A DNA stretch of 11,200 nt, taken from the IMG/VR virus record IMGVR_UViG_2541047728_000018. The stretch is one strand, 5' to 3'. Within the stretch, counting starts at the first letter, position 1; every line of letters begins with the position of its first letter. The notes beneath the pieces are model-generated. The model saw only the letters and a list, made by a program, of their open reading frames with translations, was not told the DNA's origin and searched no databases. Made by a program: the position numbers and the translations under genes. Positions 2,835 to 10,462 of this stretch are shown here, in pieces. This DNA comes from a virus. Lineage: Duplodnaviria; Heunggongvirae; Uroviricota; Caudoviricetes.

Positions 2835-3291
2835 AAACCGCTTGCAAAAAATTATCACGGGGCTGTATGCTTCCCCCGTCGCCCACATGGCGACCGGGTT
2901 TAGCAGCCTGAATACATCTGGCGGACAGCCGCCCACATCCGATAAGCGGTTTTTTTGTGTCCGTAAACCTACCCATACCCGCATTATGGCGGGGCGTAAC
3001 GGGGGAGCCTTTGTGCTCGCTGGTTTCCAGATGACCAGTCTGCTAACCCTGTTACGTCTCGCCACCATGTTTAGCAGCGTAGTAGCGAGACTCCTTAAAA
3101 TTCATCTGGGAGCCTTTCACATGGCTGTATTCGCACGCCCTTATTTTGTCTGGCGCTTTATGCAGTGCCTGACAGACAGTATTGCAATATTCACCGTTAC
3201 CGCTGCCACTGAGCGCGAAGCACGTGCACAGCTGCCGCACGCACATCTTATTTTTGTCGCCCGTATTCGCCAGGGGGGGAGTCATGCATAA
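2827..3291 (+). CDS. Protein (154 aa) whose C-terminal ~56 aa are paralogous to the preceding small ORF; alternative internal start at 3121
   Basis: Start overlaps the upstream stop in ATGCGTAA (2827-2834). C-terminus FVWRFMQCLTDSIAIFTVTAATEREARAQLPHAHLIFVARIRQGGSHA. ATG at 3121 has a GGGAG SD and would give a 56-aa paralog instead. Confidence 0.35.
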   Translation: MRKNRLQKIITGLYASPVAHMATGFSSLNTSGGQPPTSDKRFFCVRKPTHTRIMAGRNGGAFVLAGFQMTSLLTLLRLATMFSSVVARLLKIHLGAFHMAVFARPYFVWRFMQCLTDSIAIFTVTAATEREARAQLPHAHLIFVARIRQGGSHA

Positions 3292-6760: not shown

Positions 6761-6766
6761 AAAAAA

Positions 6767-6804
6767 GCCCGATAAGGTCAGAGGTGGCTTATCGGGCTTT
6801 TGCA
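6767..6804. terminator. Strong hairpin (11-bp stem) flanked by an A run and T-rich tail; bidirectional terminator-like
   Basis: AGCCCGATAAG (6767-6777) / CTTATCGGGCT (6789-6799), 11-nt loop, preceded by AAAAAA and followed by TTTGC. Confidence 0.3.
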
Positions 6805-7169: not shown

Positions 7170-8224
7170 TGGCAGGCAAAGCAACGGCACTTAACACTAA
7201 CCAGCTTTTCATGTACCTGAATCGCGGGGATATTGCGGATTTTAAATTCAGCCCTCTGTTTACCACGCTGTTTTTCCCGAACGTGGCGACATTCAGCACG
7301 CAAAACATCATGCTGGATACCCTGGACATTGAAGAAGTCACCATGTCGGCGTTTTGTTCGCCTATGGTGGGTAGCCAGGTTCAGCGCGATAAAGGGTACG
7401 AAACCAGCACAATCAAACCTGGCTACATGAAGCCAAAGCACGAAATCGATCCAACGAAAACCATCATGCGCATGGCTGGAGAAGATCCGGCACAGCTTAA
7501 CGACCCTACCTATCGCCGTATGCGCCTGATTACTGGCAACATGCGCCGCCAGATAAACGCCATTAAGGCACGCGTGGAATGGCTGGCGGTGAATGCGGTA
7601 ACGACCGGAAAAAACATCATTGAGGGCGAAGGCATAGAACGCTATGAAATCGACTGGAAAATACCGGAAAACTGCATCATAGAGCAGGCCAAGGGTAAAA
7701 AATGGTCCGAGCAGGATAAAGACATGCACGACCCAATCTATGACATCGAGCTTTATGCTGATCAGGCTGGTTGCCCCGCAAACGTCATGATTATGGGCGC
7801 TGAGGTATGGCGAACGTTACGCAGCTTTAAAAAATTCCGTGAGCTGTACGATCTTTCCCGTGGTTCAGAGTCCGCCGCAGAGCTGGCCTGTAAAAACCTG
7901 GGCGAAGTGGTGAGCTTTAAAGGCTATCTGGGCGATATTGCCCTTATCGTCTATTCCGGCAAATACACTGACAGCGACGGCACAGAAAAATATTTCCTTG
8001 AGCCTGATTTGCTGGTTCTGGGCAGCACCAACAATAAAGGGCTGGTGGCCTATGGTGCGATTATGGATCAGGACGCAGTAAGAACGGGCGCAACGCAAAA
8101 CATGTTTTACCCGAAAAACTGGATTGAGGACGGCGATCCGGCGATTGAGTACGTGCAGACGCACAGCGCACCGCAGCCGGTTCCGGCAGATATTCGCAAA
8201 TTTGTTACCGTCAAAATTGGTTAA
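7169..8224 (+). CDS. Major capsid protein, lambda gpE family
   Basis: 351 aa. Collinear similarity to lambda gpE recalled from memory: KFSPLFTTLFFPN vs KFDPLFLRLFFRE; PGYMKPKHEIDP vs PGYVKPKHEVNP; DPTYRRMRLITGNMR vs DPAYRRRRIIMQNMR; YPKNWIEDGDPAIEYVQTHSAP vs YPKNWVTTGDPAREFTMIQSAP. Good SD GGGGGTGA. Confidence 0.85.
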   Translation: MAGKATALNTNQLFMYLNRGDIADFKFSPLFTTLFFPNVATFSTQNIMLDTLDIEEVTMSAFCSPMVGSQVQRDKGYETSTIKPGYMKPKHEIDPTKTIMRMAGEDPAQLNDPTYRRMRLITGNMRRQINAIKARVEWLAVNAVTTGKNIIEGEGIERYEIDWKIPENCIIEQAKGKKWSEQDKDMHDPIYDIELYADQAGCPANVMIMGAEVWRTLRSFKKFRELYDLSRGSESAAELACKNLGEVVSFKGYLGDIALIVYSGKYTDSDGTEKYFLEPDLLVLGSTNNKGLVAYGAIMDQDAVRTGATQNMFYPKNWIEDGDPAIEYVQTHSAPQPVPADIRKFVTVKIG

Positions 8225-8583: not shown

Positions 8584-8997
8584 ATGGCAACGAATGAAAG
8601 CATCATGACGCTACCGCTGGCGAGTAAATTTAAAGCCGAAGCGCGGGCAATGGCTGACAGAGGTTTATCAACCTATGAGGCCGTATATCAACTAAACAAA
8701 CTGGAAGAGCAGGACAAGCCGCGCGCTGATGCGATTATGGCGCTTGATGAATCTGGCGACTATCAGCCGCTGTTACGTGCAATGGCAAACGTGCCTTGTA
8801 TCGATGTTGGTACGGCTAAAAGCATCCTTAGCATGACCATAGAGCAGGAACGTCCGAAGGTTGCGCCGGAACTTACTGCAGCCTTTGAAAACTTTATGGA
8901 CATGCACAGCCCGCAAGCCGTATCAGCTGGCATGGCATACGATGGCAGAAACCAGGGCGATGACGGCGACATCGATCGCATACTGAAAACCATCTGA
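8584..8997 (+). CDS. Hypothetical protein (137 aa) in the head module
   Basis: Good SD AGGGGGA, tight spacing after the decoration gene, followed by a terminator. No recognisable family. Confidence 0.5.
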   Translation: MATNESIMTLPLASKFKAEARAMADRGLSTYEAVYQLNKLEEQDKPRADAIMALDESGDYQPLLRAMANVPCIDVGTAKSILSMTIEQERPKVAPELTAAFENFMDMHSPQAVSAGMAYDGRNQGDDGDIDRILKTI

Positions 8998-9003
8998 GAC
9001 AAG

Positions 9004-9027
9004 GCCGGAGAAATCCGGCTTTTTTTT
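9004..9027 (+). terminator. Rho-independent terminator closing the head module
   Basis: Stem GCCGGA / TCCGGC with GAAA loop, followed by 8 T. Confidence 0.65.
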
Positions 9028-9029
9028 AT

Positions 9030-9138
9030 GGGTCCTTTCCGGCATATGGACCCGTTACGGGGCGGCGACCTCGCGGTTTTTCGCTATTTATGAGCTTTTT
9101 CAGGGGGGTGGTGGTGGTTTTGTTGTTTGCTCTATCTT
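9030..9138 (+). other. cos site (cosQ-like, lambda-identical cosN, non-lambda cosB) upstream of the Nu1-like gene
   Basis: GGGTCCTTTCCGG (9030-9042) matches the lambda right-end cosQ-proximal sequence; CGTTACGGGGCGGCGACCTCGCGG carries the lambda 12-nt cohesive end GGGCGGCGACCT (9060-9071). Downstream sequence diverges from lambda cosB (no CGTTTCC-type R sites). Confidence 0.7.
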
Positions 9139-9165
9139 TATGAATGAAAAGGGAAAGATGCAAAC

Positions 9166-9203
9166 AATACACCAACCTGAAGCAGTAATTAAGTTGGTGT
9201 ATT
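9166..9203. promoter_or_regulatory. Perfect 11-bp inverted repeat AATACACCAAC / GTTGGTGTATT just upstream of the Nu1-like start codon
   Basis: Arms at 9166-9176 and 9193-9203 with 16-nt spacer; the right arm ends 2 nt before the ATG at 9205. Could be a cosB-type binding site or an RBS-occluding stem-loop. Confidence 0.3.
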
Positions 9204-9204
9204 A

Positions 9205-9747
9205 ATGAAATCGCACCTGATGAACAAAAAAAACATGGCGAAAAGCTGCCGTGTAAGTGCGACAGCGTTCGACAAGTGGGGAGTGACTCCCGTTGAACGT
9301 AAAGGCCGTGAGGCGTTTTACGATGTTGCCAGCGTGATAGACAATAGGGTTAACAATGCAATTAGCCAGCTTACAAACGACAAAGGCGATATTGATGATG
9401 ATGAACTCTTACGAGTCAGGATCAGATTACTGACAGCACAGGCGGAGGCGCAGGAACTTAAAAACGAGCGCGATCGCGGTGACGTGATTGATACTGAGTT
9501 TTGCCTGTACGCGCTTTCAAAGCTGGCGAGTCAGATTTCATCAATCATGGACAGCCTCCCGCTTACTATGCAAAGGAGCTTCCCACAGATTACCCCCGCC
9601 ATGCTGGATAGGCTTAAAAGGGAAGTGGTTAAAGCCTGTAATGCCAGTGCCAGAGTTGCCGACAACCTCCCACAGATACTGGCTGATTACTTGAAAGAAA
9701 CAACCGGAAACGTACCGGAAAAGTTGCTACAGAAGAAAGGCGAGTAA
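9205..9747 (+). CDS. Terminase small subunit, lambda Nu1-like (possible packaging-redirection TerS)
   Basis: 180 aa. LLTAQAEAQELKNERDRGDVIDTEFCLYALSKLASQISSIMDSLPLTMQRSFPQI vs lambda Nu1 LTRAQADAQELKNARDSAEVVETAFCTFVLSRIAGEIASILDGLPLSVQRRFPEL; N-terminal wHTH region (NKKNMAKSC...FYDVASVI) is related but diverged. Alternative starts at 9220 or 9235; SD is weak. Confidence 0.8.
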   Translation: MKSHLMNKKNMAKSCRVSATAFDKWGVTPVERKGREAFYDVASVIDNRVNNAISQLTNDKGDIDDDELLRVRIRLLTAQAEAQELKNERDRGDVIDTEFCLYALSKLASQISSIMDSLPLTMQRSFPQITPAMLDRLKREVVKACNASARVADNLPQILADYLKETTGNVPEKLLQKKGE

Positions 9748-9775
9748 CAGACGCGCAATTATTGAACAAAACTGA

Positions 9776-9969
9776 GAAACGACATGAAAGCGTCATAAAT
9801 CGCCATTTTAGATGATTACCGTGTCGTTTCTTTTTATTGTGTATCTATTTAAAAACAAATAGTTATGTTCGAGAAGTACCGACATGCTTTTTCCAGAAAA
9901 ATTTTCATAAACAGATAAAAACCGCGAGGTCGCCGCCCCGTAACGGGTCCATAATTCCAGGAAGGACCC
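9776..9969 (-). other. Complete lambda-type cos (cosQ, cosN, cosB with R-site-like repeats) in inverted orientation
   Basis: 9917-9952 is the exact reverse complement of 9046-9081. Read on the minus strand, the flank resembles lambda cosB: TTTATGAAAATTTTTCTGG; AAAAGAAACGACACGG; CATGTCGTTTCTCAGTTTTGTTC (compare lambda TTTATGAAAATTTTCCGG; AAAGGAAACGACAGGTG; CTGTCGTTTCCTTTCTCTGTTTTTGTCC). cosQ-like GGGTCCTTCCTGG is the complement of 9957-9969. Confidence 0.65.
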
Positions 9970-10003: not shown

Positions 10004-10285
10004 ATGACAGAAGCCGAAATACTGGGATTAATCCGCCGTGCTGGTGGAATCAGCCAGCAGACTGACGAACAGGCCACGCAGCCGGACAGCGTGACAGCCG
10101 AAAATTATGCGCGTGTTGTTGCTGAGGTGATGCGCCGTGATGGTATCCAGCTTAATGATGTGGATATGCGCAACATACGGATCCGCGTTCTTGAAATGCT
10201 GGCCTACAATCGCCGCGTGGCACTGTATCGGGAAACGGAGAAAATTACATACCACTGGAAGAAGCCGGAGCGGTTGCGGCGGTAA
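10004..10285 (+). CDS. Hypothetical protein (93 aa)
   Basis: ORF with weak SD, immediately outside the inverted cos; Arg-rich C-terminus. No recognisable family. Confidence 0.4.
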   Translation: MTEAEILGLIRRAGGISQQTDEQATQPDSVTAENYARVVAEVMRRDGIQLNDVDMRNIRIRVLEMLAYNRRVALYRETEKITYHWKKPERLRR

Positions 10286-10462
10286 CTGGTTGATATTTTC
10301 GAAATTCGCCAGCGGCGAACATCGGGGAAACCAGCCTAACCCGTTGATATTTTCGGGAACCTCAAATTGAGGAGGTCGGAAACATAACCCGTCATATTCT
10401 GGATGCTGATAATTACCACGCAGCCCATTAAGGCCTAACCCGTTGATTCTTTCGGAAACAGC
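10281..10462. repeat. About four imperfect tandem repeats (period about 48-54 bp) with core TAACCCGTTGATATTTTCGG and recurring CGGAAAC
   Basis: GTTGATATTTTCG at 10289-10301 and 10343-10355; TAACCC at 10337, 10385, 10436; variant cores TAACCCGTCATATTCTGG and TAACCCGTTGATTCTTTCGG. Confidence 0.5.

Follow-up and report, generated by a model that had tools for sequence, protein, structure and literature searches.

How can a chromosomal island that encodes a small terminase subunit (TerS) and no large one (TerL) have its own DNA packaged by a phage? The question is raised by an 11,200-nucleotide stretch of Caudoviricetes DNA, IMG/VR record IMGVR_UViG_2541047728_000018 (hereafter the window, with positions counted from its first letter), in which a gene for a Nu1-like TerS, terS, follows closely behind a perfect inverted repeat. 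Sequence comparison identifies the window as a phage-inducible chromosomal island (PICI) of Escherichia coli IHE3034, with 99.9% identity over a 1.2-kb stretch around terS. We lean towards the view that terS encodes the small terminase of a lambda-type (cos) PICI, which would bind a private cosB and recruit the large terminase of a helper phage.

The existence of the gene and its 'TerS' label are already public. Its RefSeq label is small terminase, many other extraintestinal pathogenic E. coli (ExPEC) genomes match the 1.2-kb terS stretch and have the open reading frame (ORF) labelled 'terminase small subunit', and Fillol-Salom 2018 (PMC6092414) lists the IHE3034 element among the Gram-negative PICIs and says that it encodes TerS. 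Beyond that one-line statement, our literature search returned no later work on the IHE3034 island and no characterised PICI-encoded Nu1-type TerS. A large terminase gene was not found in the island by the ORF list, Pfam, PHROG or the IHE3034 annotation; this is expected for a satellite and leaves the Nu1-family membership of the protein unaffected.

A Nu1-family small terminase of mosaic make-up

The gene and its product are laid out as follows, with identities given to lambda Nu1, N15 gp1 and PhiR5_1 Nu1, in that order.

9205–9747, + strand: terS, an ATG-initiated ORF of 180 aa encoding a Nu1-family small terminase
Residues 1–52: predicted DNA-binding domain (DBD) of the N15 winged helix-turn-helix (wHTH) type; 35%, 58% and 29%
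Residues 53–72: short linker; 15%, 20% and 15%
Residues 73–127: central oligomerisation region; 56%, 53% and 67%
Residues 128–167: putative TerL-binding C-terminus, followed by a 13-residue tail; 28%, 28% and 48%

The ORF is the one originally predicted, position 9166 being the start of the inverted repeat and not that of the gene. Its assignment as a Nu1-like TerS is confirmed by a match to Pfam Phage_Nu1 (PF07471; residues 33–148, E=2.3e-23, 83 bits against a cut-off of 30), a match to PHROG 57 'terminase small subunit' (residues 1–174, E=3e-53), and a BLASTP alignment with lambda Nu1 (residues 6–166, 35% identity, E=2e-34). When the whole protein was searched against the sequences of solved structures, no chain of a terminase, Nu1 or Rpp came up. 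Support for the ATG at 9205 comes from the N-terminus M-x-x-H-L-[LM]-N-K-K, which is conserved in homologues of 57–60% identity. Internal starts at Met6 or Met11 were considered and rejected, Met6 being a leucine in the same homologues.

The original prediction held that the wHTH is diverged while the centre and C-terminus are conserved. This is true of the central region, 56% identical to lambda Nu1, but not of the C-terminal segment, which at 28% falls below the wHTH itself (35%); a slightly different segmentation against lambda Nu1 gives 43, 11, 56 and 28% for DBD, linker, centre and C-terminal segment. Nor is the wHTH a novel divergence. By its recognition helix it belongs to the N15/Monarch specificity class (PMC4669245), and N15 gp1 is the closest phage TerS overall, at 46% identity. 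Specifically, the recognition-helix core AFDKWGV is identical in the two proteins, residues 14–40 are 63% identical to N15 gp1 versus 37% to lambda, the wing and linker are shortened in both, and the DBDs carry the same deletions relative to lambda. The linker region of the island protein has an 11-residue deletion relative to lambda Nu1. The C-terminal half is closest to PhiR5_1-type Nu1, and the C-terminal segment is 41–49% identical to the TerS proteins of PhiR5_1 and of the CFT073 potB prophage. Judged by these alignments, the protein is a mosaic of two known lambdoid TerS types and not a lambda Nu1 with a novel head. Terminase subunits in which an N15-type DBD is fused to the lambda C-terminal half do function (PMC4669245), which shows that a mosaic of this kind can work.

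We used an AlphaFold2 (AF2) model, built from a 22-sequence alignment, for local N-terminal topology only. Residues 5–56 of the model form a strand-helix-helix-strand-strand-helix arrangement with predicted local confidence (pLDDT) of 70–84; pLDDT of the whole model is 64.

Among island alleles, terS is under purifying selection, with a whole-gene dN/dS of 0.09–0.24. Constraint is strongest in the DBD (dN/dS 0.02–0.14), and variation is greatest in the C-terminal segment (dN up to 0.26, dN/dS 0.21–0.27 in most pairs), the reverse of the pattern that had been assumed. A constrained DBD with a variable C-terminus is what would be expected of a fixed island cosB served by varying helpers.

The first cos site, its cosB and the inverted repeat

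terS lies directly 3′ of cosQ (9030–9036), cosN (9055–9076) and a private cosB (cosB′, 9077–9204), and the same layout is found in all related loci that are long enough. The elements of this first cos site (cos1) and the hairpin before it are given below, with distances counted from the nick so that 9060 equals lambda bp 1.

9001–9028, + strand: terminator-like hairpin, a 9-pair stem with 5 GC pairs at 9001–9022 followed by TTTTTTTT, between the capsid/scaffold-like operon and cos1
9030–9036, + strand: cosQ of cos1, GGGTCCT, which aligns with lambda cosQ (the first 7 of the last 30 bases of the lambda right end)
9055–9076, + strand: cosN of cos1, identical to lambda cosN, with the 12-nt cohesive end GGGCGGCGACCT at 9060–9071
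9107–9130, + strand: R3′, a candidate TerS site, GGTGGTGGTGGTTTTGTTGTTTGC, at bp 48–71 from the nick, the R3 position (50–65 in lambda, 48–59 in N15)
9160–9179, − strand: R2′, a candidate TerS site at bp 101–120 from the nick (lambda R2, ~108–123), including the left arm of the inverted repeat at 9166–9176
9190–9203, + strand: R1′, a candidate TerS site including the right arm at 9193–9203, overlapping the only Shine-Dalgarno (SD)-like GGTG (9196–9199) and ending 1 nt before the ATG

cos1 is directed at terS, which is the lambda orientation, and its cosQ is kept in all related loci. In the phage collection searched, matches to cos1 stop at about 9105, and the cosB at 9106–9204 has no counterpart. 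The original proposal that a satellite Nu1-family TerS sits beside a cos site with a different cosB is therefore upheld, and a TerS that would direct a helper TerL to that cosB is the most reasonable reading, since cosQ and cosN of cos1 are phage-like while the cosB is unmatched. A search of GTDB genomes for related loci gave four, two of which are marine prophages with a terL gene. The cohesive end itself can vary. In E. coli GPEC79-13-647 (locus L032; 4700–22300), the island cohesive end GGGCGTCAGGCG differs at several positions from the GGGCGGCGACCT of the prophage that embeds it, and cosN positions 6–12 vary in other relatives too (loci L008–L014).

The elements of cosB′ are conserved. The R3′ block GGTGGTGGTG-TTGTT is kept throughout an alignment of 14 related loci, which cover E. 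coli and three further genera, and in a fourth genus too. Loci of E. coli, Kosakonia, Superficieibacter and the L008 type share the R2′ core AAYAYACCMAC, from which the L012 type has diverged further (AATATAGCCAC). The spacers vary while R3′ and the R2′ core are kept across the 14 loci, which come from E. coli, Kosakonia, Superficieibacter and Enterobacter/Citrobacter-type elements. R1′ takes the forms GTTGGTGTATT, GTGGGTGTATT, GTGGGGATATT, GTGGGGGTATT and GTTGTGGTATC among alleles and is absent outside E. coli. The three elements are oriented +/−/+, as are R3, R2 and R1 of lambda, and their distances from cosN are roughly those of the lambda elements. In addition, R3′ pairs with 9160–9177 as an 18-nt inverted repeat (78% complementary) and is rich in GKT triplets, like N15 R3 (GAGGTTGTTGTT). 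Of 5426 complete E. coli genomes, 767 carry the cosB′-terS unit, among them enterohaemorrhagic E. coli (EHEC) O157:H7 and O26:H11 and the probiotic strain Nissle 1917.

The 11-bp inverted repeat is perfect, as originally reported. AATACACCAAC at 9166–9176 and GTTGGTGTATT at 9193–9203 are complementary at 11/11 positions around a 16-nt loop, lie at bp 107–117 and 134–144 from the nick, and are separated from the ATG by one base (A9204). By dinucleotide shuffling of the window, 0.10 repeats of this kind are expected per 11.2 kb, and 7% of the shuffled sequences hold at least one; with two further perfect repeats of at least 11 bp in the window, the repeat is statistically unusual but not overwhelmingly so. 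Perfect repeats elsewhere in the window are a 14-bp one with arms at 6763–6776 and 6788–6801 and an 11-nt loop, intergenic between ssb and the capsid module, and an 11-bp one at 7371/7416 within the capsid gene.

In lambda, cosB is made up of R3, an integration host factor (IHF) site, an inverted R2, and R1, and R2/R1 form a 16-bp perfect inverted repeat shortly 5′ of the Nu1 start (PMC9026076). Because lambda R2/R1 precede Nu1 in this way, a perfect repeat before the start codon is the expected signature of a cosB. The 11-bp repeat is most likely the R2′/R1′ pair, that is, the candidate DNA-binding sites of TerS itself, rather than an RNA switch; of the two readings first offered for it, a cognate DNA site is the better half.

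The other half, and the one originally preferred, is that an mRNA hairpin masks the terS ribosome-binding site and start codon and imposes translational control, possibly relieved or reinforced by TerS. We regard this as decidedly unlikely. In the window allele the stem has 11 perfect pairs, with a predicted energy between −13.7 and −14.5 kcal/mol (z=−4.7); the sole SD-like GGTG falls within it, and a single nucleotide divides it from the ATG. The sampled alleles of O26:H11 and O157:H7 have this perfect repeat as well, and it probably occurs in about 470 of the 767 unit-carrying genomes, an estimate from identity bands that include the window type and from five sampled loci. The hairpin is, however, not conserved among other alleles or genera. 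In E. coli alleles whose first 46 residues carry 0–4 substitutions, 7–9 of the 11 arm positions match and the changes are not compensatory, the imperfect right arms being GTGGGGATATT, GTGGGGGTATT, GTTGTGGTATC or GTGGGTGTATT; where the right arm would be, the relatives from Kosakonia, Superficieibacter, Enterobacter and Citrobacter have a plain Shine-Dalgarno sequence, AGAGGTGAAAATG. Outside the window type the predicted hairpin has −1.5 to −7.4 kcal/mol (z −1.8 to +0.7), no different from shuffles, and an Rfam scan matches no family to the repeat region. Furthermore, a sigma-70 promoter scan shows no promoter-like site between the terminator-like hairpin at 9001–9028 and the repeat, so the transcript may not include the left arm. 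A local effect on translation in the window allele is conceivable, the only SD-like GGTG being in the right arm.

The terminator-like hairpin, a strong one of the intrinsic type, which ends in an 8-T run and is identical in the island EcCICFT073, stands before cosQ, so that terS expression would need read-through, antitermination or a promoter missed by the scan. The inverted repeat was also considered as a terminator and rejected, as no T-run follows it.

A second cos site, a shared slot and the helper terminase

terS is placed between two cos sites. A long inverted repeat flanks the gene (9030–9100 versus 9898–9969), each arm consisting of a lambda-type cosQ and cosN with a 12-nt cohesive-end sequence identical to that of lambda; complementarity is 89% over the 56 nt of repeat I1 and 81% over the 16 nt of repeat I4. 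The second site (cos2) is made up as follows.

9766–9897, − strand: cosB of cos2, phage-like, which aligns with the cosB of lambda and PhiR5_1 and contains inverted repeat I2
9772–9784, − strand: R1-like element, GAGAAACGACA
9822–9833, − strand: R2-like element, TGTCGTTTCTTT
9853–9865, − strand: I1/IHF-like site, from the IHF scan
About 9868–9886, − strand: R3-like element, from alignment with lambda and PhiR5_1
9898–9969, − strand: cosN and cosQ of cos2 (cohesive end 9927–9938, cosQ 9963–9969), inverted with respect to cos1

By blastn, the cosB of cos2 is 83.6% identical to PhiR5_1 over 151 nt and 73.9% identical to lambda. Among relatives, cos2 may be present or not. The window and the O26 and O157 loci carry it at full length with a lambda/PhiR5_1-like cosB; in locus L020 its cosB is a different one, with GGATCTGA-type repeats; in L021 and L030 it is cut short within cosN; and it is absent from L015–18 and L031, where a 93-aa ORF starts 12 nt after terS.

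The island is collinear with EcCICFT073, and by sequence the element is an EcCICFT073-type PICI. The two share 95% identity as far as 9101 and again from 9892 on, whereas the stretch enclosed is unrelated; the breakpoints coincide with the cosN-proximal ends of both cos repeats. Both have the order cos1, gene, inverted cos2, and terS occupies the slot of rppA. In EcCICFT073 the corresponding gap (CFT073 locus L026, 42480–43380) holds its own cosB, rppA and a cos2 whose cosB is 87% identical over 153 nt to a resident CFT073 prophage. The replacement of one gene by the other looks like a cassette exchange by recombination within the cos repeats. In EcCICFT073 cos1 (L026 ~42590–42610), ACACCACCACCAC stands at the same distance from cosN as GGTGGTGGTGGT at window positions 9107–9120; the two are (ACC)n and (GGT)n runs that point in opposite directions, even though the sequences of the two DNA-binding proteins are unrelated.

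On the reading we favour, TerS would dimerise through its N15-type winged-helix domain and bind R3′ (9107–9130), the inverted R2′ (9160–9179) and, less critically, R1′ (9190–9203). Its central and C-terminal regions would bring in a gpA-type large terminase from the helper, which would nick the phage-like cosN at 9060–9071 and package island DNA rightwards. In this way the island TerS alone would do what Rpp and the helper TerS do together in EcCICFT073. The inverted cos2, with its helper-type cosB, would be an optional extra that lets the unmodified helper terminase act on the island. We take the helpers to be lambdoid because PICIs that carry relatives of terS sit inside the capsid gene of lambda-type prophages.

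Several observations weigh against this proposal. The C-terminal segment is 28% identical to lambda and N15, and with no phage class examined does its identity exceed 48–49%. TerS C-termini sort into classes that match those of TerL N-termini (lambda/N15; PhiR5_1/CFT073-potB; the CFT073 icd prophage), and the island C-terminus comes nearest to the PhiR5_1/CFT073-potB class, at only 41–49%. One relative is embedded in a lambda-class prophage, whose TerL N-terminus is identical to that of lambda over 80 residues and whose Nu1 aligns almost residue for residue with lambda Nu1. A C-terminus that does not match the lambda class, together with a relative inside a lambda-class prophage, means that direct TerL binding is not assured. 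On the DNA side, the reverse complement of R2′ (AGGTTGGTGTAT) agrees with the N15 R3 12-mer (AGGTTGTTGTTT) at 10/12 positions, a match that is not significant (three window matches at up to 2 mismatches versus 1.25 expected), and R3′ agrees with N15 R3 at only 7/12 at the equivalent position, its best match lying some 9 bp away. Alleles whose DBDs are essentially identical differ in R1′, which may therefore be a weak or dispensable site, and an IHF consensus scan of cos1 gave no site between R3′ and R2′. A Foldseek search of the low-confidence model (pLDDT 64) against PDB gave no match at E<0.1. Finally, in the sole published test that we found, inducing the resident prophages with mitomycin C did not lead to transfer of the IHE3034 island (PMC6092414).

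The C-terminal mismatch bears most directly on an Rpp-like alternative, which we consider unlikely. Here the island TerS would assemble jointly with the Nu1 of the helper, using the conserved central or DBD dimer interfaces, with the island subunit reading the private cosB and the helper subunit giving the TerL contact, and helper packaging would be poisoned too. The central oligomerisation region is indeed the most phage-like (56–67%) while the putative TerL-binding segment matches the lambda class poorly (28%), a relative resides in a lambda-class prophage, and terS occupies the slot of rppA, whose product works in this way. Unlike Rpp, however, the island protein keeps a full-length C-terminal domain, and this segment is under purifying selection (dN/dS 0.21–0.27 in most pairs). 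N15-type DBDs form tight homodimers (PMC4669245), and the region of lambda Nu1 at which Rpp contact and escape map is missing or diverged. Specifically, residues 46–72 of the island protein have no equivalent of lambda Nu1 ~48–58 and about 15% identity across the linker, the region to which the Rpp-contact and escape residues Y50, A55, E65 and D68–R70 map. With this region lost or diverged, the island TerS might be insensitive to the Rpp of competing islands.

The published transfer result and the lack of a TerL in the island would also fit a decoy or a relic, in which the protein either titrates helper TerL, acting by interference only, or is inactive, and the repeat is left over from a captured phage cosB. 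This we rate as very improbable: the ORF remains uninterrupted, and purifying selection acts on it, across hundreds of genomes and several genera, terS always lies directly 3′ of a complete cosQ-cosN-cosB′, and the elements of cosB′ are conserved together with it.

Comparison with known systems places the proposed TerS-directed packaging among them. With lambda Nu1 and its cosB, the island shares the Pfam family, the three-part protein layout, the position of the gene after cosQ-cosN-cosB, the +/−/+ elements and the R2/R1 inverted repeat. It differs in overall identity (35–38%), in the recognition helix and in the 11-residue deletion after the DBD; its R sequences are unrelated to the CGTTTCC type, there is no IHF consensus between R3′ and R2′, and no terL follows terS.

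The likeness to N15 gp1 and the Monarch group is closer (46% overall to N15 gp1, 58% in the DBD), and extends to AFDKWGV, the short wing and linker, and GKT-rich R elements (GGTTGKTGT). N15 itself has a single R3 and a remote rR2 inside the gene, its R3 is not identical to any island R element, and its C-terminal half resembles that of lambda (79% in the last segment), while to both of these the island TerS is 28% identical. The Monarch group combines an N15-type recognition helix with a tripartite cosB (PMC4669245), and the island would have the same arrangement; for this comparison we used the published description of the group.

The Rpp proteins of EcCICFT073-type PICIs (Fillol-Salom 2019, PMC6739421) share with the island TerS the backbone (95% flanks), the slot between cos1 and inverted cos2, and the presumed purpose, namely to divert lambdoid packaging towards a private cosB that occupies the R3 position. 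At bp ~48–62, the (ACC)n/(GGT)n-rich element is likewise similar in composition to that of CFT073 but runs in the opposite orientation. The proteins are different. BLASTP of the island TerS against RppA of CFT073 gave E=0.2 and no meaningful alignment. Rpp proteins have 139–154 aa and a coiled-coil C-terminus with no TerL-binding domain, and lack the C-terminal 40–50 residues that the island TerS keeps (PMC9026076); the island protein has 180 aa and a Nu1-type C-terminal half and, as its alignments indicate, is a complete Nu1 homologue and not an Rpp.

In the headful-packaging Staphylococcus aureus pathogenicity islands (SaPI1 and SaPIbov1), the satellite's own small terminase redirects the helper large terminase (PMC6092414), as proposed here. 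The SaPI system is pac-type, with an unrelated TerS family and Gram-positive hosts, whereas the island is cos-type, with cohesive ends and a lambda-like cosB.

Island gene content and implications

In IHE3034 the island lies between cspD/yljB and clpS, with the gene order int-alpA-pri-ssb-capsid E-decoration D-hyp-terS. Its annotated genes are as follows.

Integrase
AlpA-like regulator
DUF4222 protein
D5-type primase
Single-stranded DNA-binding protein (SSB)
Lambda E-type major capsid protein
Lambda D-type decoration protein
137-aa protein
terS
93-aa protein

Pfam matches in the window cover the integrase, AlpA, D5-type primase, SSB, capsid E and decoration D. The island thereby has the hallmarks of Gram-negative cos-type PICIs: int, alpA, a primase/replication module, cos, a length of about 10–11 kb, a partial set of virion genes and a chromosomal site. 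The 93-aa ORF 3′ of terS has no assigned function.

The 137-aa ORF (8584–8997, + strand), which separates the decoration gene from cos1, matches PHROG 1999, of unknown function, and, more weakly (E=1e-8), the C-terminal end of the lambda-type head maturation protease, PHROG 53. This end is the position of the nested scaffold Nu3 in lambda, so the island may encode a trio of capsid E, decoration D and a scaffold-like protein. In some relatives a 127-aa AlpA-like helix-turn-helix protein stands in its place. A C4 antisense RNA (Rfam RF01695) is matched over its full length at 2982–3069 (+ strand; 72.7 bits, E=5e-13), just 5′ of an ORF labelled Icd-like cell-division inhibitor in IHE3034; the pair resembles, by sequence, a P1/P7-type c4-icd immunity arrangement within a PICI. 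Near the right end of the island, the IHF consensus WATCAANNNNTTR has three exact matches within 170 bp on the − strand (10283–10295, 10337–10349 and 10436–10448) and none elsewhere in the window, and these may be att-arm architecture.

The literature searched contains no description of the N15-type/PhiR5_1-type mosaic, of a tripartite private cosB with the repeat as R2′/R1′, of a terS-for-rpp cassette exchange between cos repeats, or of a polymorphic helper-type cos2. More speculatively, and with doubts greater than for the packaging proposal itself, we suggest that the lambda-type PICI packaging module can be exchanged as a cassette (cos1, specificity protein, inverted cos2) whose borders are the conserved cosN/cosQ repeats. 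The cassette here would hold a complete mosaic TerS, with an N15-type DBD and a PhiR5_1-like TerL-binding half, and a tripartite cosB. Packaging would then be independent of helper TerS, a second hijacking route besides Rpp in about 14% of complete E. coli genomes, and in the commonest alleles R1′ would double as an RNA/DNA operator over the terS ribosome-binding site.

For lambda-type PICIs, only the Rpp route of packaging has been worked out, and islands of the same backbone that encode a TerS are common. Our analysis corrects the idea of an RNA switch before terS and extends known principles rather than revealing a new kind of system. The predictions that it yields, namely the DNA elements of the private recognition site, the DBD class (N15/Monarch) and the C-terminal helper class (PhiR5_1/CFT073 potB), should aid the finding of helpers and the design of PICI-based delivery vehicles.

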